Below are positions 1-39,588 of a DNA stretch of 39,588 nt, one piece after another. Source of the stretch: a virus (Duplodnaviria > Heunggongvirae > Uroviricota > Caudoviricetes). Where the stretch lies: the IMG/VR virus record IMGVR_UViG_2534681990_000031, one strand, 5' to 3'. Position 1 is the stretch's first letter. Every line of letters starts with the position of its first letter. Made by a program: the position numbers and the translations under genes. Below the pieces are notes generated by a model. It made no database searches. It was not told the origin of the DNA and saw nothing but the letters and a program-made list of their open reading frames with translations.

Positions 1-1554
1 TTATTTCAGATTCTTTCTAATTATTTTCCCCGAGCAATTACGTGGCAGATCTTTTCTGATCTCCAGATAAGAGGGCACTTTAAATTTCGCCATATTTTGT
101 TCGCAGAAGCGGAAAAATTCCTCTTCGCTCAATGTTTCACCTTCATTCAGCACCACAAATGCTTTGATGGCTTCATCGCGAATCGAATCTTTAATACCCA
201 CAACCACGATATCCTGAATTTTTGGATGGGTGGCGATGATATTTTCCAGCTCCACGCAGGAGACATTCTCGCCACCGCGTTTGATCATATTGCAGCGGCG
301 ATCGACGAAATAAAAAAAGCCCTCTTCGTCGCAGTATCCGGTATCGCCGGTATGTAGCCAGCCGTCGGCTTCCAGCACTTTCGCAGTGGCTTTCGGGTTG
401 AGAAAATACTCTTTGAAGATGGTTTTCCCTGGTACGCCTTTAATACAGATTTCACCGATCTCACCTGCCGGGAGCGGGCGATTGTGATCGTCGCGGATCT
501 CCGCTTCGTAGCAAAACCCCGCCCGACCAATCGACGGCCAGCGTCGTTTATCGCCAGGGCGATCGCCGATAATGCCCACAATGGTTTCCGTCATCCCATA
601 AGACGTCAGCAAGCGAACGCCGAAGCGTTCACAAAACGCATCTTTTTCCTGCTCCGACAAGTTGAGATAAAACATCACTTCCCGCAGGCGGTGTTGCCGA
701 TCGTTCGCTGAAGGCGGCTGCACCATCAACGTACGGATCATCATCGGAATACATTCGGTAATGGTGGCGCGGTACTTCTGCACCTGTCCCCAGAAGGCGC
801 GGGCGCTGTATTTCTCGACCAGCACAAAGGTGGCCCCGGCAGAAAACGCCGCCATCGCCGCAGTACACTGGCAATCGATATGAAACGCAGGCATTACCGT
901 CAGGTAGACGTCATCGTCACGCAGTGCACACTGCCAGGCGGAGTAATATCCAGCGAAGCGCAGGTTGTAATGGGTAATCACCACACCTTTCGGTCGGGAG
1001 GTGGTGCCGGAGGTGAAGAGAATTTCCGCCGTATCGTCAGTCAATAGCGGCGGTGCATAGCACAAGGTGGCAGGTTGTTGATTTTTCAGTTGAGTAAACG
1101 AACTCACGCCATCATCAGCGGGAAGTGCCACATCTGTCAGGCAAATGTGCCGCAATTGAGTGGCATCTTCCTGCTGAATCTGTTGATACATAGGATAGAA
1201 TTGCGCACTGGTCACCAGCAGGCACGCCTGGCTATTTTGCAGGATCCACGCGCTTTCCTCGCGTAACAGGCGGGCGTTAATCGGCACCATAATCGCGCCA
1301 ATTTTTGCCAGCCCGAACCAGCAAAAGATAAATTCCGGGCAGTTGTCGAGATGTAGTGCAACCTTGTCGCCTTTGCGAATCCCCAGCGTATAAAACAGGT
1401 TTGCCGTGCGGTTAATCTCCTGATTTAACTCAAGATAACTATACCGGTTAACGACTCCGCCGCTGGATTCACAAATCAGCGCCGTTTTATGACCGTAAAC
1501 GTCCGCCAGATCGTCCCACATTTGACGTAGATGTTGTCCGCCAATGATATCCAT
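1..1554 (-). CDS. caiC: crotonobetaine/carnitine-CoA ligase CaiC (host gene)
   Basis: Track ORF 1..1725(-); protein from [29 protein letters not shown] matches recalled E. coli CaiC; adenylate-forming motifs [10 protein letters not shown] and YGMTE; stop codon at window bases 1-3; in-frame ATG at 1569 (MDRGAM) is an alternative start. Confidence 0.9.
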
Positions 1555-1599
1555 TGCACCTCTATCCATTTTTGTTCGTTTGTTATTGGTATAGCGCGG

Positions 1600-1680
1600 C
1601 GATTTTTTTGATACCGATTTGCATTTCATTTGATACCGCTGAAAAACGCCGATACGCAACTTATTTGATACTAAATCGGC
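1600..1680. repeat. three direct TTTGATAC(C/T) repeats at phage right end, candidate transposase binding sites
   Basis: TTTGATACC near 1607 and 1629, TTTGATACT near 1664 (22 and 35 bp spacing); adjacent GAAAAACGC resembles the recalled Mu attR site core. Confidence 0.4.
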
Positions 1681-1717
1681 GCTTTTCTTTTGAGTTTTAG
1701 AATGAGTTTTTAAGCGC

Positions 1718-2455
1718 TCATTCACTCTCTTTCAAACCAGTTTTAACTGTTTGTGGTTTTGGGTAAGGCTGGACTTTGAATAGCTTTGTGTTGAGGCGTT
1801 TTCTGGCCCTCTTGTTCAGAAACCGGATGTAACGAAACTGTCGGAACTTATGCACACTGGCTCTGTCGATATTAGCCCTCAGATGTTCACCTCGTTGTCC
1901 GCCTCGTTTAATGGCATTCCTGCAAATCTCGTGATACCACTCGCCATCAAGTTCATAGAATGTTGATTCATGGCTGCCTACATAATCAAAATTGCTTGCC
2001 TGATACACGACACCAAGACAGCCACAACGCTCATCTGCAAACGACTGAACCCACTGTACCTGCGGATAAAGCTGCCTGATTAGCTTGAGCGCGTAACTGA
2101 TTGCCCTTGATTCGGAGTTTCTCGGCATACAGTCATGCATCCATAGCCGGTTAAGCTCCATATATTCTCGGTTCTGCGTACCCGTTACGACGCGTGCACC
2201 ACTGTTTGGGTTAAGGGCGTAACCCCATTGCATTACGCCAACAAGTTCCCGTTCTGAAAATATACCCAGATGAAGGTAGGAATTATTTACGAAACGGTGG
2301 CTGTAATGTTTATTGACGATAACCAGTCTGGCCAGCCAGCAACTTATTGTCTCAACCCGCAACTCACGGGAGCCATAACCAACGATATTGTCGTTATAGC
2401 GAATAAGTTCAGGCGTGCTGATGATACGGGATGTGACTTGCTTTCTGTTCCCCAC
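1718..2455 (-). CDS. mom: Mom-like DNA modification protein (anti-restriction adenine modification)
   Basis: Track ORF 245 aa; last gene before the phage right end; overlaps the 3' end of a Com-like zinc-finger ORF as in Mu; listed first codon is GTG so true start uncertain. Confidence 0.7.
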
Positions 2456-2609
2456 GACAGGATTTCCTTGTGTATGTGGGGTGCTCTGTGGCGCTCGGAG
2501 ATGTGATTTGATTGAGGGTTTTACTGCGCGGACATTTTACTTCCAGATAACTGAAACTGGCCCGTGCCAGTAGCTTATTGCAGTGTCGGCACCGTATGTT
2601 TCGATACAT
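2409..2609 (-). CDS. com: Com-like zinc-finger translational activator of mom
   Basis: Internal Met of track ORF 2409..2654 gives [30 protein letters not shown], resembling recalled Mu Com (IRCKNCNKLL...RCPRCK); overlaps mom start by ~47 bp. Confidence 0.65.
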
Positions 2610-2649
2610 GACCGCATAACCTCCTGCTTTGTTGTTGATGCCTTTCTCA

Positions 2650-2680
2650 TGCAATCGATCGACAAAAACGATCGATTCGA
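2650..2680 (-). promoter_or_regulatory. GATC/TCGATCGA cluster upstream of com-mom, candidate Dam-sensitive regulatory region
   Basis: Two GATC sites ~13 bp apart (about 2657 and 2670) within palindromic TCGATCGA/CGATCGAT about 50 bp upstream of com start; Mu mom promoter is regulated through clustered GATC sites. Confidence 0.4.
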
Positions 2681-2723
2681 TTTGTTTAATTGATACAACA
2701 AATAGATTGAAAAGTCATCAACA

Positions 2724-3188
2724 ATGATTCAGGGAGGTGATTATTTACTTAAAGAAAACGAAGAGTTAGGTGGTGAAAACGATCATAAAATGATCATTTT
2801 ATTGACTTTTTATACAGTGAAGGTAGGATCACGCGTACATGTAGTATGTTTCAAATCAACAGGATACTACATAAAAGTGAAACCCAGCATAGCTGGAACT
2901 ATGCTGGGTCAATCTGTAAAAACTTGCATCAATGCTTTACTTCGAGCTCGTGGCGTATCCTATGATATTCCCCGGTCTCCTGTAAAGCAGAGATGCATAA
3001 AAAGGAGATCTTTATCATGGATGAAAGAGCCTGTTTGCCCTGCCTGTAAGACTCCCTTACAGCTCATCTATCGCCGTTCTCGATCTCAAAATGGCAAGAC
3101 ATACAAACCCAAAAATGCTTCCTGTTTCAGGATGCTGATATGTCCTGCCTGTTCTCCCAGGAGGGAAAATACACAAAACGTGCATTAA
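2724..3188 (+). CDS. hypothetical Cys-rich protein; likely real product is the C-terminal ~55 aa (CPAC...CPAC) from an internal Met near 3021
   Basis: Track ORF 154 aa; C-terminal MKEPVCPACKTPLQ...CFRMLICPACS with AAGGAG-like RBS upstream of the internal ATG; convergent with minus-strand genes across a shared hairpin; N-terminal two thirds look non-protein-like. Confidence 0.25.
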   Translation: MIQGGDYLLKENEELGGENDHKMIILLTFYTVKVGSRVHVVCFKSTGYYIKVKPSIAGTMLGQSVKTCINALLRARGVSYDIPRSPVKQRCIKRRSLSWMKEPVCPACKTPLQLIYRRSRSQNGKTYKPKNASCFRMLICPACSPRRENTQNVH

Positions 3189-3803: not shown

Positions 3804-3838
3804 CCCGCCAGCCATATCATGACCGGCGGGATTTTTTT
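3804..3838 (+). terminator. GC stem (CCCGCC...GGCGGG) followed by T7 run, plus-strand terminator-like element overlapping esterase stop codon
   Basis: 6-bp stem with 15-nt loop then ATTTTTTTAT; T run is on the plus strand only; the loop is long for an intrinsic terminator. Confidence 0.3.
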
Positions 3839-5876
3839 ATTCTGTTACCGCTTTTTTCACTTCCACCACAATGCTGTCAATCAGCACCGGGTAAGTTGCA
3901 TTTTTTGTGATATCCGTTACGCGGAGTTTGTCCACCGGGAAAGTTCCTACTGGTGACTGCGTCAGGGTAAACGCGGCACCATCCTGACCATCAATAACCG
4001 GAATAACCTGAAGGCTGTTATTTCCTGCAAAACGGAAGGCCAGCGTATGCCATTCATTATCAAATGCACCAAAGGTTCCCAGTTTCTGGTTATTTGTTGC
4101 CACTTTTGCATTGTGGTACATCACATTCAGGTCTTTTGCGTCTGTCTGGATGTAGAACGATGCCAGCAGATTATTCCCTGCATCCCCTGTCAGGGTGACA
4201 CCCTGCGGCAGAGAGGAAACCGGCCAGTAAAGCCCCATGACATACTGGTTTGCCACCAGGTCGCCAGGTACTTTAAAACGACAACTGATTAAACCACCAT
4301 TTTTCAGCAGTTCAGCACCAGTACCGGCATCATGATCCAGATACCAAGATGATTTACCTGTTTCCTTGGTCAGTTTCATTGCCTTACCACCTGTGCCTCC
4401 TGCATCACTGATAATTTCAGCTTTACCGCCAGCCGGCTCCCAGCCCTGGGCTTTCAGATTTCCTTCTGACTCACTGACACGATAAGACAGCAGTGTTGTG
4501 GTTACTGCTTCAGTTTCTGAAGGTGACGGCACTGGTGCTTCAGTTTCAGAAGATGGAACATCGGCTTTTACTGTGGTTCGCCCCGCATGAGTCAGAACTG
4601 CCGTGGCCAGACGGTCGGAAATAATCCCACGACGTGCCCATGAACTGAAATGGCTGGCCCGGTCCGCAGATGTCCAGGTGGCGGCACTGTTACGCCACGT
4701 TGAGCCGTAATAACCAATGGATTCAATATCCGGGTCTTCTGCCGGATTGTTGGTGGGTACATTCGCGTCATTTTCATCTGTCATTAATGGAACGAAATGA
4801 ATGTTTTTATCTGTTTTGTTTTTGTAGCCGCCATAGATTGCCTGGTATGCCGGTTCATTTTTCTGTTTCCAGAAATACGTGGTATCGCCACAAATCCACG
4901 GAACGCCAGCAGCACTGCCACCGGTACACTGTTCCGCCTGTTCAGCCAGGTCTGCGCGGAATTTTTCCACCATCGCCAGAAACAGCGCGGAATGCTCCGT
5001 CGGCTTCGCATCAATATCAAACTCGCCCTGCATCCACACCACAGCAAGCAGGCGGTTTTTCGGGTTCTTCGCCAGTGCCGCTTTTGTCCGGCTGATTAAG
5101 TCCTTATACAGCGGCTTATCCACACCCCAGCGGGCTGAGTCCTCTGAAGCACCCGTGCTGTCACTGTACGTGCCGTCAGCACCCGCCGTGAATGCAGAAC
5201 CACCACGGCAGCAGGGAACCAGCAGAATCCCCGCATCTGCCGGAATAAACGGCAGCAGTTTTTTGGCAATGTGAAGCCCCTGACCCACGGTGCCATATTG
5301 CCCTTTAGCCACATCCGCTTTCGGGTGATTTTTTCCACTCATATCCTGCACATCATGCAGACAGTGGTCGGCCAGAATGATGTCGTTATACTGACAGGCT
5401 TTACCTCCCGGCGTGACTGTACTGCGACGGGCTAACTGCATAATACGCGGTTCGGGGCGGTCATATGTCTCCGGCAGTGGCAGACCTTCACCGTAAGCCA
5501 TACCGTTTGACTGACCAGCAAGAACCACCACGTAATACCAGGAAGGGGAGCTGGAAGCAGTTTCATTTCCTGACGGACGGGTATGTGTTTCAGCATTATC
5601 CCAGTCTGACGGTTCAGCAGTACCGGCAACATCAGCACTTAACGGAATGACCGCACCAATACCCGCTCCGGTAATTTCCACACTCGGATCACCGGATACT
5701 GGCCTTACCCACAGGCAATCCCGTGTATTAAAACTGATGAGACAGTCAGCAAATGTCATTCCTCCTTTTGTTTCGGCCGGAGGAAAGGGAGCCTCAAGAA
5801 ATGCCGCTGTACCACCGGAAACTTTAACAGTAAAGTTTCCGGGCATTGATGATAGTTGAACCCATTTGGACGTCAT
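3837..5876 (-). CDS. putative sialate O-acetylesterase-type SGNH/SASA hydrolase with C-terminal beta-rich (lectin-like) domain; NanS-p-like prophage cargo
   Basis: Track ORF 679 aa; VVVLAGQSNGMAYGEG (GQSN block I) and LLAVVWMQGEFD motifs typical of the SASA esterase family; S/T/P-rich linker PSSETEAPVPSPSETEA; sits between gin and com where Mu has no gene. Confidence 0.6.
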   Translation of the reverse strand: MTSKWVQLSSMPGNFTVKVSGGTAAFLEAPFPPAETKGGMTFADCLISFNTRDCLWVRPVSGDPSVEITGAGIGAVIPLSADVAGTAEPSDWDNAETHTRPSGNETASSSPSWYYVVVLAGQSNGMAYGEGLPLPETYDRPEPRIMQLARRSTVTPGGKACQYNDIILADHCLHDVQDMSGKNHPKADVAKGQYGTVGQGLHIAKKLLPFIPADAGILLVPCCRGGSAFTAGADGTYSDSTGASEDSARWGVDKPLYKDLISRTKAALAKNPKNRLLAVVWMQGEFDIDAKPTEHSALFLAMVEKFRADLAEQAEQCTGGSAAGVPWICGDTTYFWKQKNEPAYQAIYGGYKNKTDKNIHFVPLMTDENDANVPTNNPAEDPDIESIGYYGSTWRNSAATWTSADRASHFSSWARRGIISDRLATAVLTHAGRTTVKADVPSSETEAPVPSPSETEAVTTTLLSYRVSESEGNLKAQGWEPAGGKAEIISDAGGTGGKAMKLTKETGKSSWYLDHDAGTGAELLKNGGLISCRFKVPGDLVANQYVMGLYWPVSSLPQGVTLTGDAGNNLLASFYIQTDAKDLNVMYHNAKVATNNQKLGTFGAFDNEWHTLAFRFAGNNSLQVIPVIDGQDGAAFTLTQSPVGTFPVDKLRVTDITKNATYPVLIDSIVVEVKKAVTE

Positions 5877-19407: not shown

Positions 19408-19778
19408 GCACGGGCCTGTTCCGCTTTGTTACCGGTCTTTTTCCGGGGAGCATCCTGTCCGGCTTCGGCTTCGGCTTCGGCTTCGGCTTCGGCTTCGGCT
19501 AAATCTGTACCGGCCACTGCATGAACCACACCCGCCACGCTCCCCGCATCATCAGCAGACGTCTGTAGTATTCGCACAGTGAGGCATGGCTCCTCCTCCA
19601 GTCGGGCAAGCTGCTCCGGGGTGACCTCAACCTGCTGACGTCCACGCGTGAACAGGAACCCCGCACGACGAAACGCCGAACGACTGCAACGCACTTCTGC
19701 CAGCACCGTGACAGAATTGTCACCACTGACCTGAAGACCTGAATCATCTGTTGCTGCCACAGTGTGATGTTCATTCAT
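19404..19778 (-). CDS. head-associated protein (Mu gp35 position) with C-terminal (Glu-Ala)n tract
   Basis: 124 aa; ...LAEAEAEAEAEAEAGQDAPRKKTGNKAEQARA; located between major head and gp36-like genes. Confidence 0.55.
   Translation of the reverse strand: MNEHHTVAATDDSGLQVSGDNSVTVLAEVRCSRSAFRRAGFLFTRGRQQVEVTPEQLARLEEEPCLTVRILQTSADDAGSVAGVVHAVAGTDLAEAEAEAEAEAEAGQDAPRKKTGNKAEQARA
19461..19500. repeat. (GGCTTC) hexanucleotide tandem repeat, ~6.7 copies, in-frame inside a CDS
   Basis: ggcttcggcttcggcttcggcttcggcttcggcttcggct read directly; encodes (EA)n on the minus strand. Confidence 0.9.
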
Positions 19779-19821: not shown

Positions 19822-20769
19822 TTACAGATAATCCGCGACAACCAGCTCCAGCTTACCCTTCATCTCGTTAGAGACGGTTGCGTTTCCGTCTGCGAACAGT
19901 TCACGCTCCAGCAGCTGCACCGCCTGTTTTTCCAGCGAGGTGGGGACAACAATATGGGTGGGTTTAATGCCGAGTTTGCGGCCACCGTCAGCGGTAAATT
20001 CGCGCATGGCTGACCAGCCGTGCCACAGTGCATCCAGCGTCAGCGGTGACTGCATCATGTAGGCCATCTGCCAGAAGCCGTAGCCCACATTGCGACGGGC
20101 GGATGCACCAAACACAAATTCGTTATCGGTGAATGCGCGACCTTCATCGACTTTGGTCTGGGCAACCAGTTCAGCCTTACGGCGATCCTGATAAATCAGC
20201 GGTTTTACCGCGCGGGAGCAGTCAAGCAGATACCAGGCCGGACCGCTGTAATCAGCCTGTGCGCCGACAGAGCCGGTTTTTGCCACAAACATATTGCTGA
20301 CCATCTGCGCATCCCCGGAGCCATCCACTTTGGGGTAAACCGGATGTTCGGTATCAAAGAAGTTCTGACCGTCATAGCAGGCCGCACTGATCCCGTCACG
20401 CAGGGCAGCAAAGACCAGCTCATCCGGTTGTACCGCCGCAGCGCGCCCCATCTCCTGGAACAACGGGGAATAAATACCGAGGTTGTCGTCTTCGAAGTCA
20501 TCGCGGCTAATGGCGACAGTGCCTTCAAAAGTTTTGTTCACGATGGCATAGCCATAGGCTTTCATCTTCTCGATGACGCGGGAGCCGATCCACTCACGGA
20601 ACTGCGGGAACTGCCCCAGCCAGCCGTAGGTGTTGGATTTCGATGTGGAGGGCACGGTCATCGCAATTTTTTTATACTGCGACGGGGCCATGGACATCCC
20701 GGCCTGAAAATCAGAACGGTAGCCCGTCATCAGGGCTGTGATCATCGCCGGTGTAATCGGGGTAGGCAT
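19822..20769 (-). CDS. major head subunit (Mu T-like)
   Basis: 315 aa; follows I protease/scaffold gene with overlapping stop/start; sequence type matches Mu-like major head family. Confidence 0.85.
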   Translation of the reverse strand: MPTPITPAMITALMTGYRSDFQAGMSMAPSQYKKIAMTVPSTSKSNTYGWLGQFPQFREWIGSRVIEKMKAYGYAIVNKTFEGTVAISRDDFEDDNLGIYSPLFQEMGRAAAVQPDELVFAALRDGISAACYDGQNFFDTEHPVYPKVDGSGDAQMVSNMFVAKTGSVGAQADYSGPAWYLLDCSRAVKPLIYQDRRKAELVAQTKVDEGRAFTDNEFVFGASARRNVGYGFWQMAYMMQSPLTLDALWHGWSAMREFTADGGRKLGIKPTHIVVPTSLEKQAVQLLERELFADGNATVSNEMKGKLELVVADYL

Positions 20770-34611: not shown

Positions 34612-35142
34612 TTATTTATTCAGTCCGGCGTCCTGTTCAAAAGGCTCGACATAAAAACTTTCAGCGCCTTTATTCACCTTAATACCGGCAATGCCTTTCA
34701 CTGCATCCGGCTCCGCTAGGACCGCTTCCTTGTTCACTTCCTCTTTCGTGCGGATGAATCGCTCAAGCCCCATACGGCGCAGCATTTCAATCACACCTTC
34801 CACATCACGGCTGACGCTGCATGATGGATTTCCCAGCCGCCATGACACTGTTCCGGTGGTCAGATTGGCTGTTTTGGTTTTGCCGCCGTTCGTCAGCTCA
34901 TCGCGGTTGGTTTTGCACCAGTCCTGAATCCCCTTAAAAAGCACTTTGATTTCTTTTTTAAGGTTTTCAATCTGCGGCGTATAACGGGCGGTGATTTCTG
35001 CCACTTCATCATTCATCGCCGTTTCCAGCCGTAGCGCCTCTCGCTGAATATCGCCCAGGGTACGGATATCGCGGCTGACTTCTTCGCGGGTCTGCGGTGC
35101 AGCCTCGGCTGCGGCCTTTAATTTTGTAACACGTTTAGCCAT
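34612..35142 (-). CDS. gam: Gam-like DNA-end binding protein (host nuclease inhibitor, Ku-like)
   Basis: MAKRVTKLKAAAEAAPQTREEVSRDIRTLGDIQREALRLETAMNDEVAEI...DELTNGGKTKTANLTTGTVSWR closely resembles recalled Mu Gam. Confidence 0.85.
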   Translation of the reverse strand: MAKRVTKLKAAAEAAPQTREEVSRDIRTLGDIQREALRLETAMNDEVAEITARYTPQIENLKKEIKVLFKGIQDWCKTNRDELTNGGKTKTANLTTGTVSWRLGNPSCSVSRDVEGVIEMLRRMGLERFIRTKEEVNKEAVLAEPDAVKGIAGIKVNKGAESFYVEPFEQDAGLNK

Positions 35143-35153
35143 TTTGTTTTTCC

Positions 35154-35447
35154 TTATTGCAGTGTGCCTGATGCTTTATGCACGCGGTGGCGTTTAATGA
35201 TGGCATCCGCCCCAAAAGCCTGTACAGATGCCTGAAATTCCGCTGAGAGAAACTGAATAATTTCAGGACTGTGATACTGGAGAATACTTGCATAAACGCC
35301 ACAGAGTGACGTCGGCCTGTTATTCGTATCACGTTCTGTTTTTACATCCACACCAATCTTTTCATGCACTTCAACACAGTCATTGCCTGCCGGTTTTTCG
35401 TCATGCGAAACATGCTTAAATTCAAAAATAACGCGTACTTTGCTCAT
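35154..35447 (-). CDS. hypothetical protein, paralog 2 of tandem pair (97 aa)
   Basis: Internal ATG of track ORF 35154..35474; N-terminus MSKVRVIFEFKHVSHDEK parallels neighbour MSKVVRIIFEYKEHVIHK; AGGGG RBS. Confidence 0.5.
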   Translation of the reverse strand: MSKVRVIFEFKHVSHDEKPAGNDCVEVHEKIGVDVKTERDTNNRPTSLCGVYASILQYHSPEIIQFLSAEFQASVQAFGADAIIKRHRVHKASGTLQ

Positions 35448-36269: not shown

Positions 36270-36497
36270 TTAGCTGACTTGTTTCGCACCAACAGAACGG
36301 CATATTCCGCTGTAAACGTCTGTCGCACCTTCGCGATCAAGTCCGGCAGATATCACCATTCGTGTGCGGTCATTAAATTCAAAAAGTAAATCGCCACATT
36401 CTTTATTTTCGGCCAGTGAAATCACCTTCACGTTATCGAAATTAACCAGGTAAAAGCGTCCGTAAATATCAGGAATATTAAATACCGCCATAATCAC
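36270..36497 (-). CDS. small protein at the position of Mu kil (75 aa)
   Basis: Track ORF immediately downstream of B with ATGA overlap; function by position only. Confidence 0.45.
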   Translation of the reverse strand: MIMAVFNIPDIYGRFYLVNFDNVKVISLAENKECGDLLFEFNDRTRMVISAGLDREGATDVYSGICRSVGAKQVS

Positions 36498-37426
36498 ACC
36501 TGTGAGAGTAATTCAGGGTTGGTATAAACCTCTTTAAAGGCCGCATTAATATGTTTTTCTGTCAGCGCCGCGCCTTCACCGCTGGCGGTGAGCCACGCCT
36601 GGTTAAGCGTATGTGTCAGAACGCGTAACGCTCCCGGCTTTTCAGCGATAGCCTGCATGACGGCCAGCTCGGCCTCACCACTGATCCCCCACGCCCTGGC
36701 AATGGCCAGCACATCCGCCTTTTTGGCCTTGCGAAGTTGTTTTGTACGGGCAAGACGGCTGAACAGGCGCGATAAATCATCAAAGGCGCGGCGTCCACCT
36801 TTAAACAATCCGCGCGGGTTACCAATAAGCACCATCCCGATCCCCGTGGCGTCCTGAATTGCCCGGAGTTGCTCCAGACCGTCAATACCCAGATGATCCG
36901 CCTCATCCACAATCACCAGTCCACGCGTTCCCATCAGGCGACGGCGGATGGCGCGGGATAATGCCCCTTTGTTCGCGCGGGTGTAATCAATCCCCAGCGC
37001 ATCGGCCAGCTCCAGCAGACACTCCGTGACGCTGGAGTGCGCGGGTGACAGGGTGATCATCCAGGTGTTTGGTTGCTCCTGGCAGTAATTACGGGCAGTG
37101 GCCGTTTTACCCACACCCGGTACGCCCACAATAACGTTAATACAGCCCATCAGACGAACCGCCTGAAACAGTGCGCGCAGCTCCTGGACTGTCTGCGTTT
37201 CCACAAACTGCGGCGGTTCCGGCAGTGCGCTTTGTTTATTCCAGTTTTCATACCAGGAACGCAGGGAAGCAGCCACAGCGGCGTTATCGCCTTTATATTT
37301 CCCCTTGCGGAAAGCCGATAATGTGCCGTCGGAAATTCCCGCCTCTCTGGCGATGGCATACTGCGTCAGTACGCCGCCATCAATAAGTTCATCAATGGTC
37401 TTGATTACATCGTTAATATCAGTCAT
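36494..37426 (-). CDS. B: MuB-like AAA+ ATPase target-DNA activator
   Basis: 310 aa; N-terminal HTH (TQYAIAREAGISDGTLSAF), Walker A GVPGVGKT, Walker B LVIVDEADHL; strong similarity to recalled Mu B. Confidence 0.9.
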   Translation of the reverse strand: MTDINDVIKTIDELIDGGVLTQYAIAREAGISDGTLSAFRKGKYKGDNAAVAASLRSWYENWNKQSALPEPPQFVETQTVQELRALFQAVRLMGCINVIVGVPGVGKTATARNYCQEQPNTWMITLSPAHSSVTECLLELADALGIDYTRANKGALSRAIRRRLMGTRGLVIVDEADHLGIDGLEQLRAIQDATGIGMVLIGNPRGLFKGGRRAFDDLSRLFSRLARTKQLRKAKKADVLAIARAWGISGEAELAVMQAIAEKPGALRVLTHTLNQAWLTASGEGAALTEKHINAAFKEVYTNPELLSQV

Positions 37427-37464
37427 ATTATTAACCTCTCATTTGATACCTTGTTTAATCAAAT

Positions 37465-37498
37465 AACCTGAGTCGCCGCTCGGGTTATTTTTTTATTT
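37465..37498. other. hairpin with T7 run in A-B intergenic region
   Basis: AACCTGAG-TCGCCG-CTCGGGTT then ATTTTTTTATTT on plus strand; adjacent ATTTGATACC shares the right-end repeat motif. Confidence 0.3.
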
Positions 37499-39588
37499 CA
37501 GGCCAGCGGGTCATTTTCTTTTAATTTCGCTTCCAGCAACTGCAATCCCCGCTGGAAATTACGCTCGTATTCTTCATCAGGTTCATCGTCAGCGACCGGT
37601 TGCTGAACGGTCACCGTATTACCCACAGGGCGGTATATGTTTTCCAGCCAGGGCTCCTGCGGCTTGTGCTCCAGCACGTTGACAACCTCATCCTCGGCAT
37701 CACGGATTTTTTCCTCTGCGCGTTTACGCATGCCTTTAAGGCGTTGCTGCTGTTTGTAGTATTCCGCGCTGACCGGGAAGGCTTCGCGTTTATTGCCGTC
37801 CCATACCGCCTCGCAAATCACGCTGCCATCCAGGCGACGTACGGTAATTCGTTCGGCATCATGAATGTCATAGCTGATAAGCACCTTACGGCCATGCTCG
37901 TCACGCAGCTCGGGCGCGTAGTAAATATTATTCAGCCAGCGTATTTCACAGCGTCTTACAGGGCGTTCCACCATCGGCCGGAACATATCCCGCAGCTCAA
38001 CATCGGACAGCCATTCAATTTCCGTGTCCTCTTCCGCCAGGCGTTTTTTTCTGAACTCCGCCGGGCTGTAATGCTTGCCGTTCGGCTTCACCGGTAATTC
38101 ATCGTGCGGCCGGTTGTTGTACCACTCAACACCGTCACGAATGGCATCAATCAGTTCAGACCAGGACGGTAAATCACGCATCGCTGACTGCTGCCGGGCG
38201 TTCAGCCGTTTGCCCTGTTGCAGGGCAGTAAATGCCGAGCGTAAATCGCGGTTGGTTTTGCGTAACGTCTCGCGATCTGCACCTTTCCCGAAATAGGTGC
38301 GGTATTTACGGGCTATGCGCATCGGTAATGTGCGGTTAAGCCGTTCGATAATGCCTCGTCCCTGCGGATTACCGGCAATCCCGGTCGGGTGATTAATCCC
38401 CAGTCGCGGCAGTATCCCCACAACCTCCTTATCCAGGATGTCGGCGGTTTCCCCGGAGCCGTTATCCGAGTAATACAGAAACGGTTTGCCGTGATGGCGA
38501 ATGCCGTGCTGTATGGCACCGGCTACGGCGAAAACATTTTCAGCCAGGTCAAGGCTCCAGCCCACCACAAAGCGCGTGCCACCGTCGATAACAAAGGTCA
38601 CTTCCGGTGCAAATGGCCGACCGTGAACCGGGTGTGCGCATTTCAGCTTCATGCCGTGACCGTCACCAATCCAGACATAATTCACCGGCATTCTGGACCA
38701 GTCGCGGCGCGTGAATCCCTCAAGCTGGCGGTATTCACTGCCGGTCACCCGGCCTTTTTGTTTCACCACTTCCGGCAGTTTCTTCATTGCGCGGCGAATG
38801 GAGTCATAAGACGGCATGATATCGAGCATATAAGGCTCATTAGCGTGCCGGTGCTGCCATTCAGCGACAAAATCCTCGTAAGCCTCGGTCATTGGTCGGC
38901 CGTTTGACTGGCGATACTGCGCCAGAAATTCGGGCAGCCAGTTAATATCTTCGGCTTTTATTTCCTGGCGCTTACCCGGTGCCAGTAAAAGCAGGCGTTC
39001 AGCGGCGTTCTGCGCCTTGTTAAAGGCCGCAATCCAGCGTTTCAGCGTGATTTCACTTAACGCGCGGCTGTTTCCCTTTTTGGCGTTCGCCGTCTCAACC
39101 ATTGCCACAATGCGCTCGTCCAGCTGCGAACGTGCCAGGTTGTCAACGATAAACCGGATAGCCTTCGCACAGCTGAAACCAGGTTGTTGCGCGACTTTCA
39201 GAACTTCGCTGACGATCGCGATTCGTGCATCAGCCACCTGGCGCTGGTTTTCAGTCAGGGCATTAAGGCGTTCGACCATCAGTTGTGGTGATCCGCGATA
39301 TGCCTCCACCGCATCAACCACGGCAGGCGAGCGTCTGGCCTTTGTCACCACTGGAGCCGGTGATTCATCGACTTTTTGAGTCATCAGTTGCAGGGCGTAG
39401 CGTTCACGTAATGCCTGCTGCGTCACTTCAGGTAAACAGTCGATGCTGTATTCAGTTGCTTTAGAGCCTGAGCGACGACGGGAACAACAGCTTTTCCCTT
39501 GTACGTAACGTTGTAATGCCTGGCGAATACCTTTTGTTGTAGCAGGCATTCCGGGCGCGCCAATCAGTTCTTTTGCAATGACATACAT
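37498..39588 (-). CDS. A: Mu-type DDE transposase A (starts at window edge; possibly full length)
   Basis: 696 aa; N-terminus ELIGAPGMPATTKGIRQALQRY...KATEYSIDCLPEVTQQAL parallels recalled Mu A DNA-binding domain; central DDE/RNase-H-like region (WIGDGHGMKLK...YYSDNGSGE); ATG is the last codon of the window. Confidence 0.9.
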   Translation of the reverse strand: MYVIAKELIGAPGMPATTKGIRQALQRYVQGKSCCSRRRSGSKATEYSIDCLPEVTQQALRERYALQLMTQKVDESPAPVVTKARRSPAVVDAVEAYRGSPQLMVERLNALTENQRQVADARIAIVSEVLKVAQQPGFSCAKAIRFIVDNLARSQLDERIVAMVETANAKKGNSRALSEITLKRWIAAFNKAQNAAERLLLLAPGKRQEIKAEDINWLPEFLAQYRQSNGRPMTEAYEDFVAEWQHRHANEPYMLDIMPSYDSIRRAMKKLPEVVKQKGRVTGSEYRQLEGFTRRDWSRMPVNYVWIGDGHGMKLKCAHPVHGRPFAPEVTFVIDGGTRFVVGWSLDLAENVFAVAGAIQHGIRHHGKPFLYYSDNGSGETADILDKEVVGILPRLGINHPTGIAGNPQGRGIIERLNRTLPMRIARKYRTYFGKGADRETLRKTNRDLRSAFTALQQGKRLNARQQSAMRDLPSWSELIDAIRDGVEWYNNRPHDELPVKPNGKHYSPAEFRKKRLAEEDTEIEWLSDVELRDMFRPMVERPVRRCEIRWLNNIYYAPELRDEHGRKVLISYDIHDAERITVRRLDGSVICEAVWDGNKREAFPVSAEYYKQQQRLKGMRKRAEEKIRDAEDEVVNVLEHKPQEPWLENIYRPVGNTVTVQQPVADDEPDEEYERNFQRGLQLLEAKLKENDPLA

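Follow-up and report, generated by a model that had tools for sequence, protein, structure and literature searches.

The stretch of DNA analyzed here (39,588 nucleotides, hereafter the window) raises the question of what function, if any, is served by a short word, TTTGATAC, that is found three times within a few dozen base pairs just inside one end of a Mu-like prophage. From position 1590 to its last base the window consists of this prophage, which occupies the intergenic region of caiB and caiC in E. coli and in which, read from the near end, Mom and Com, a Gin-type invertase, tail and head genes, Mor, Gam, a MuB-type ATPase and the transposase A follow one another (Table 1). The initial annotation had noticed three direct copies of TTTGATAC(C/T) spaced 22 and 35 bp and had proposed that they are the multiple phased transposase sites of a Mu-type end. 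The copies were readily found at 1607-1614, 1629-1636 and 1664-1671, all on the + strand and with start-to-start distances of 22 and 35 bp. In the whole window 5 copies were observed on both strands whereas 1.0 is expected, and at least 5 copies were reached in 1 of 100 shuffles; three same-strand copies within 66 bp are far beyond chance.

Table 1. Features discussed in the text, with positions counted from the first base of the window.
Feature	Position	Strand	Remarks
caiC (E. coli)	1-1554	-	
Target-site duplication of 4 bp, right copy: TTGG, which is CCAA on the phage strand	1586-1589		caiB-caiC intergenic region
Outermost 17 nt of the prophage at the right end, inward sequence 5'-TATAGCGCGGCGATTTT	1590-1606	+	
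R1, TTTGATACC, proposed terminal transposase-binding site	1607-1615	+	nt 18-26 from the tip; same register as L1
R2, TTTGATACC	1629-1637	+	nt 40-48; 22 bp from R1; spacing as in Mu R1-R2 and in L131
GAAAAACGC in the R2-R3 spacer	1641-1649	+	chance resemblance to Mu R1
R3, TTTGATACT	1664-1672	+	nt 75-83; 35 bp from R2, direct orientation; also in seven lineages and L131
TTTGATAC copy in the coding region of the major head gene	20351-20358	-	flank CTTTGATACC, a poorer fit to the consensus
B protein, 310 aa, MuB-type AAA+ target-DNA activator	36494-37426	-	Pfam Phage-MuB_C and AAA_22
Extra ATTTGATACC between A and B	37441-37450	+	just upstream of the B Shine-Dalgarno sequence, which is on the other strand
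Transposase A, 696 aa, MuA-family DDE enzyme, proposed reader of the repeats	37498-39588	-	
Segment of A (codons 121-200) that may determine specificity for the end repeats	38989-39228	-	

The prophage is of the same phage type as Sp18 of E. coli O157:H7 Sakai and the Sp18-like Mu-like phages of Shiga-toxigenic E. coli (STEC), a type that is named Sp18-like in the STEC literature (PMC10132054). Of the 5426 complete E. coli genomes, 243 contain its right end, which is found at numerous loci, and a 95%-identical copy is deposited in GenBank as LC727881, the annotation of which gives a 4-bp duplication. In the literature searched, Sp18-like phages are only called mobile Mu-like elements and their end-binding repeats are not described; queries on the motif, on Sp18 ends and on 4-bp duplications retrieved no description of these repeats in that literature, nor was a binding or transposition experiment on this phage found in it. 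As the last base of the window belongs to the start codon of A, the left end of the phage lies outside the window, and it was taken from the near-identical strain UTAK-8 (locus L001), in which the prophage likewise sits between caiB and caiC and which can be told from the window only by a few point differences and by a change of 30 bp in repeat number. The latter is located at about 19460-19500 within the 'HI1506-related' head-region gene, the length of which differs between relatives too. Between gin and com/mom the prophage carries a cargo gene, an ORF of 679 aa with a DUF6645 domain (3837-5876, - strand), which shows 78-81% nucleotide identity to a gene that many lambdoid phages, both Stx-converting and others, carry under various annotations (yjhS, esterase or hypothetical). 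A 'tRNA-OTHER' feature is annotated by PGAP between head morphogenesis genes of related prophages (19134-19214 in L005 and the equivalent position in L006-L008), and no tRNA or RNA family was detected anywhere in the window with ARAGORN and Rfam.

In order to define the right end exactly, positions 1-3000 were compared by BLAST with the 5426 complete E. coli genomes. Approximately 5400 genomes matched and host homology ends at 1589, the sole genome that matched past this position being UTAK-8. The phage therefore begins at 1590, and its right tip reads 5'-TATAGCGCGG in the inward direction. Six independent insertions, located at caiB/caiC, hyfE, garP, irp1, citF and within an Stx phage, were compared and their tips read 5'-TGTAACC...GCTATA-3', the right tip corresponding to window position 1590. 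In L001 the tips have the coordinates 4594-4599 and 43900-43906, and the junctions of UTAK-8 read ...GCCCGCCCAA/TGTAACC on the left and ...GCTATA/CCAATAAC on the right. The left tip is 5'-TGTAACCAGG, and its T was present in 6/6 insertions although the target base at this place differs in four of them, which rules out a 5-bp duplication combined with a left tip GTAACC; at the right tip, the base preceding TATAGC varies among the six insertions. The duplicated targets (CCAA, CAGG, TCCC, TTAC, TTCG and CATC) all have 4 bp, and including the insertion of the E. coli VL40 phage (L131) considered below, a duplication of 4 bp was found in 7/7 cases (6/6 of the Sp18 type plus L131). When empty sites were rebuilt assuming a 4-bp duplication, those of hyfE and garP matched thousands of genomes with 100% identity and without gaps over 136 nt. 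In Sp18-type phages the left tip begins with 5'-TG and the right tip with 5'-TA, and in relatives position 2 likewise gives either TG or TA. The tip at 1590 would be the point of cleavage and joining.

Reading inward from the left tip of UTAK-8, TTTGATACC was found at nt 18-26 (L1) and at nt 113-121 (L2) and TTTGATACT at nt 165-173 (L3). All three point inward and so are inverted relative to the right-end copies, and L1 and R1 both occupy nt 18-26 from their respective tips; a search for inverted copies at the left end, which had been suggested as a check in the initial annotation, therefore yielded three copies, the first of them exactly as far from its tip as R1 is from the right tip. On the left the sites are laid out as L1, a gap, L2 and L3, and on the right, where R1 and R2 are 22 bp apart, the array spans 18-83 nt inward of the prophage tip. 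In the inward reading, the two ends have no words of at least 8 nt in common other than those containing TTTGATAC and one AAATCGGC, which adjoins L3 as well as R3; the longest common word has 13 nt, a length reached in 0/2000 shuffles.

Two further features of the end regions were observed. Near both ends there is a 13-nt word, ATGAGCGCTTAAA, in the form of a direct repeat (about 1700-1723 in the window and nt 95-107 of the L001 left end), and its right-end copy belongs to a hairpin overlapping the stop codon of mom. At the L001 left end, CAGGTGA/TCACCTG words occur three times (nt 7-13, 47-61 and 81-87), including the palindrome AGGTGAAATCACCT; they are kept in the diverged left end L181 and are a candidate for a pac or host-factor site.

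In an alignment of five prophages the left end shows almost no variation up to and including nt 173, where L3 ends; only L008, with a single substitution in L2, and L006, with a gap of 1 nt, deviate. Past nt 173 the sequences separate into two immunity alleles, the repressors of which have 194 aa and 176 aa, indicating that the conserved end module stops at the last repeat. Since identical ends are combined with different repressor alleles, the repeats do not track the repressor, and this observation bears on an alternative in which they would be operators for a phage regulator (c repressor, Ner-like protein or a Com/Mom regulator) and not transposase sites. An arrangement at both ends, inverted and in the same tip register, is unneeded by any transcriptional operator, and a promoter-like site was not found between 1400 and 2000, although the right-end repeats are situated directly downstream of mom and although in Mu the repressor and the Iα domain of MuA share DNA targets and regulators can bind left-end repeats. 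As the motif class furthermore follows one segment of the transposase (see below), we consider it very improbable that the repeats serve as operators.

Conservation of the sites was explored in diverged relatives. IMG/VR was scanned for two motif copies 22 bp apart and, besides unrelated iteron arrays, about a dozen distinct Mu-like right ends were recovered; in this set the R1 and R2 motifs are imposed by the search pattern, and the independent evidence comes from flanks, tips and R3 only. In all of these Mu-like right ends T[A/G][T/A]AGCG is placed exactly 17 nt before the first copy (one reads TATTGCG), and in seven other lineages a third copy, which the pattern did not demand, is present at nt 74/75-83, the R2-R3 spacers of these lineages being unrelated to that of the window. 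R1 is invariant across all relatives, and in diverged relatives TTTGATACYR is present at the same positions while the spacers are completely changed. The 46 sites compiled, among them the R3 sites not demanded by the pattern and the L1-L3 sites of phages identified by protein similarity alone (see below), all consist of TTTGATAC followed by Y (45/46) and then by R, and their flanks contain almost no information except that A is weakly preferred at -6 and -5.

Left ends were compared in relatives that had been found by protein similarity alone, namely L251 from Salmonella and L253 from E. coli, the transposase N-terminal regions of which are 67% and 53% identical to that of the window, respectively. 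Both have a perfect TTTGATAC at L1-L3, with spacings of 95/52 in L251 and 106/40 in L253. The 106 and 40 nt of L253 (left end at 1640-1815) are the spacings of phage Mu, in contrast to 95 and 52 nt in the window phage, and the L1-L3 span amounts to about 146 nt in both L253 and the window phage. When viral contigs were scanned for the L2-L3 arrangement, four real left ends only were obtained, the other matches being noise caused by coding repeats and unrelated iterons, and a search of genome contigs with transposase A returned two close relatives only.

These comparisons also bear on the possibility that the repeats are a functionless chance or compositional feature of an end that is AT-rich and non-coding. 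Such an origin would have to account for a motif that is invariant across lineages with unrelated spacers and for copies at the other end in identical register, and the expected count is only 1.0 in the whole window. The two additional copies located elsewhere in the phage do look incidental. The copy in the major head gene is treated as a coincidence of coding sequence. Of the copy between A and B, which had been pointed out as a recurrence of the motif, the presence stood up to inspection whereas a functional role found no support: L001, L005, L006 and L007 carry it, but L008 lacks it in spite of identical ends, and nothing corresponds to it in L131. It can thus be ruled out as a conserved regulatory site; it is probably incidental, although it may have a minor regulatory role. 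With about one chance copy expected, the A-B copy and the head-gene copy are best taken as incidental, and for the end repeats themselves chance is, of all explanations considered here, the one to which we give the least credence, close to none.

The initial annotation had also drawn attention to a GAAAAACGC element resembling the core of Mu attR. This element is indeed there and the 9-mer also occurs in Mu attR, but it is a single match whereas 0.54 are expected, at least one match was obtained in 42 of 100 shuffles, it reads GAAAAGCGC in a 95%-identical phage, and in other lineages the whole spacer is replaced. A role as a Mu-like core was therefore ruled out. In the same intergenic region as the extra motif copy, from the stop of A to the start of B, a hairpin formed by AACCTGAG...CTCGGGTT with flanking A/T runs follows directly after the A stop codon (about 37460-37490). 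A hairpin is present at the same place in L131 with a different stem sequence, and this structure may adjust the expression of B as an attenuator or terminator.

A sister lineage permitted the repeats to be compared with the transposase. Phages from E. coli VL40 (L131; ends at 624-760 and 35130-35215), from Shigella/E. coli (L129/L130; about 2790-2960) and from Salmonella (L252; 1700-1860) possess repeats of a different word, TTCAAGATAA. The relative NZ_CP178302 was reached by a BLAST search with its left end. In L131, L129 and L252 the motif is found at the same positions, with R spacings of 22/35 bp and 52 bp between L2 and L3, so that this lineage resembles the window phage in having the motif from nt 18 on, the same R and L2-L3 spacings and a 4-bp duplication, whereas it differs in the repeat word, in an L1-L2 distance of 71 nt instead of 95 nt and in having 5'-TA at both tips. 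The transposase of L131 is 76% identical to A of the window. This identity is unevenly distributed: the catalytic cores of both proteins are 93-100% identical, whereas residues 121-180 are only 33-43% identical. Among five proteins compared, residues 121-200 show 53-80% identity within a motif class versus 28-49% between classes, and within the N-terminal 325 residues no other part groups by end-motif class, residues 93-120 and 201-325 grouping otherwise. The protein of L253, although the most distant overall, groups with A of the window in residues 121-200 and shares its motif. The pattern formed by residues 121-200 and the motif is, at the level of sequence comparison, that of a protein and a DNA site evolving together.

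This co-variation helps to judge whether the repeats might instead be sites for host architectural or replication proteins, or packaging (pac) signals. HU and IHF are recruited to the ends of Mu, the pac site of Mu is located near the left end, and TTTGATAC arrays also occur in an iteron-like manner in unrelated viral contigs. However, those unrelated arrays have other tips and another geometry, and the pac site of Mu is at one end only whereas the repeats are at both. Phages of the same hosts, E. coli and Salmonella, use TTCAAGATAA, and the word switches along with the phage transposase; a host factor would not switch in this way and is therefore disfavored. Sites for host proteins or packaging appear even slightly less probable than operators. 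Binding by the transposase, as originally proposed for this end, is the explanation that fits the inverted copies at the left end, the conservation in diverged relatives and the joint change of motif and transposase in the sister lineage.

The protein that would read the repeats was examined for domains known from MuA. Although A of the window shares only 22% sequence identity with MuA and its matches in the PDB are weak, Pfam identifies in it a Mu N-terminal DNA-binding domain and a Mu transposase C-terminal domain, and a Foldseek search matches A to the Iα domain (1tns, TM 0.68). The N-terminal 300 residues are predicted to hold MuA-like Iα, Iβ and Iγ folds, and residues ~121-200 are, placed by position and approximately, the predicted counterpart of the Iβ/Iγ domains that bind the ends of Mu. 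A MuA-family DDE transposase with a predicted Iβ/Iγ-like domain is thus encoded together with a MuB-type ATPase, as expected for an element with Mu-type ends.

Craigie, Mizuuchi and Mizuuchi reportedly defined in 1984 the MuA binding sites L1-L3 and R1-R3 at attL and attR of Mu, and the structure of the Mu transpososome is available as PDB entry 4FCY. For a direct comparison, the ends of Mu were taken from NC_000929, in which CGAAA cores are located at nt 22-26 (L1), 127-131 (L2), 167-171 (L3), 22-26 (R1) and 44-48 (R2), R3 being inverted at nt 57-78. Mu and the window phage both have three sites per end, a terminal conserved core about 21-26 nt from both tips, R1 and R2 spaced by 22 bp and an L1 that is set off from L2/L3 by a long spacer, and the span from L1 to L3 is 147 nt in the window phage and 145 nt in Mu. 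Both also have a DDE transposase, with Iα/Iβ/Iγ-like N-terminal folds predicted in the window phage, a MuB-type ATPase and the gene order c, ner, A, B ... gin, com, mom. The exact prophage-host junction with a short duplication and the three plus three inverted and asymmetrically spaced repeats are those of a Mu-type end. On the other hand, the recognition words are unrelated (TTTGATACYR in the window phage versus a 22-mer with ...CGAAA(A/G) in Mu), R3, inverted in Mu, is direct in the window phage and all its relatives, the right end terminates in 5'-TA (with 3'-TA on the strand that is transferred) where Mu has TG/CA, and the target duplication has 4 bp instead of 5 bp. Four features of Mu in the strict sense are accordingly absent: the consensus word, CA at both tips, the 5-bp duplication and the inverted R3. 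In a review-type paper on transposable phages, only duplications of 5 bp and 6 bp are given (PMC8705779). Repeats read by TnsB are also found at the ends of Tn7 and CAST elements; the window element differs from these in being a full myovirus-type transposable phage with MuB, and it is without TnsC/D/E or CRISPR components.

The exact junctions, the inverted copies in register, the Mu-like geometry, the conservation, the Mu-like domain folds and the co-variation of the motif with a single transposase segment lead us to conclude, with a probability of about 0.9, that positions 1590-1672 are the attR of an Sp18-type Mu-like prophage and that its TTTGATACY words are the R1-R3 sites of the gene A transposase. 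Binding of the transposase to the repeats, the placement of subunits and the chemistry can be proposed by analogy with Mu. According to such a scheme, the prophage would have transposed into the caiB-caiC intergenic region as follows. Transposase monomers would recognize each site via their Iβ/Iγ-like N-terminal part, in which residues ~121-200 are the candidates for specificity, and the monomers at the right end would pair with those on the inverted copies L1-L3 to form a transpososome. This complex would nick the 3' ends at the tips, on the right at window position 1590, the MuB-like ATPase would present the target, and the ends would be joined to it with a 4-bp stagger.

The element is of an ordinary kind and does not overturn the current understanding; new are a recognition word that was previously undescribed and an insertion scar of 4 bp and not 5 bp. 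It is tempting to go further and to regard the Sp18-type phages as a distinct branch of Mu-like phages, characterized by a 4-bp stagger, by tolerance for TA or CA at the tips and by a swappable combination of residues ~121-200 with a 10-bp word, of which at least two versions exist (TTTGATACYR and TTCAAGATAA) on a core that is otherwise 93-100% identical. We advance this proposal only tentatively, with odds that fall a little short of even. If it is true, co-resident prophages would carry orthogonal transposase-end pairs and would not cross-mobilize each other.

The 4-bp stagger and the TA tip imply that the rule of a '5-bp duplication and CA end' does not define the family. For this family of Mu-like phages, which are common among Shiga-toxigenic E. 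coli and insert into genes as well as into Stx phages, exact ends are now available together with a searchable signature, consisting of the tip T[A/G][T/A]AGCG, TTTGATACYR at nt 18, further copies at +22 and +35 and a 4-bp duplication, which can be used directly for calling prophage boundaries and for mapping insertion sites. The use of these results lies mainly in such annotation and in a natural specificity swap, as two motif classes on near-identical transposases constitute a natural system for studying how a MuA Iβ/Iγ-type domain reads DNA.
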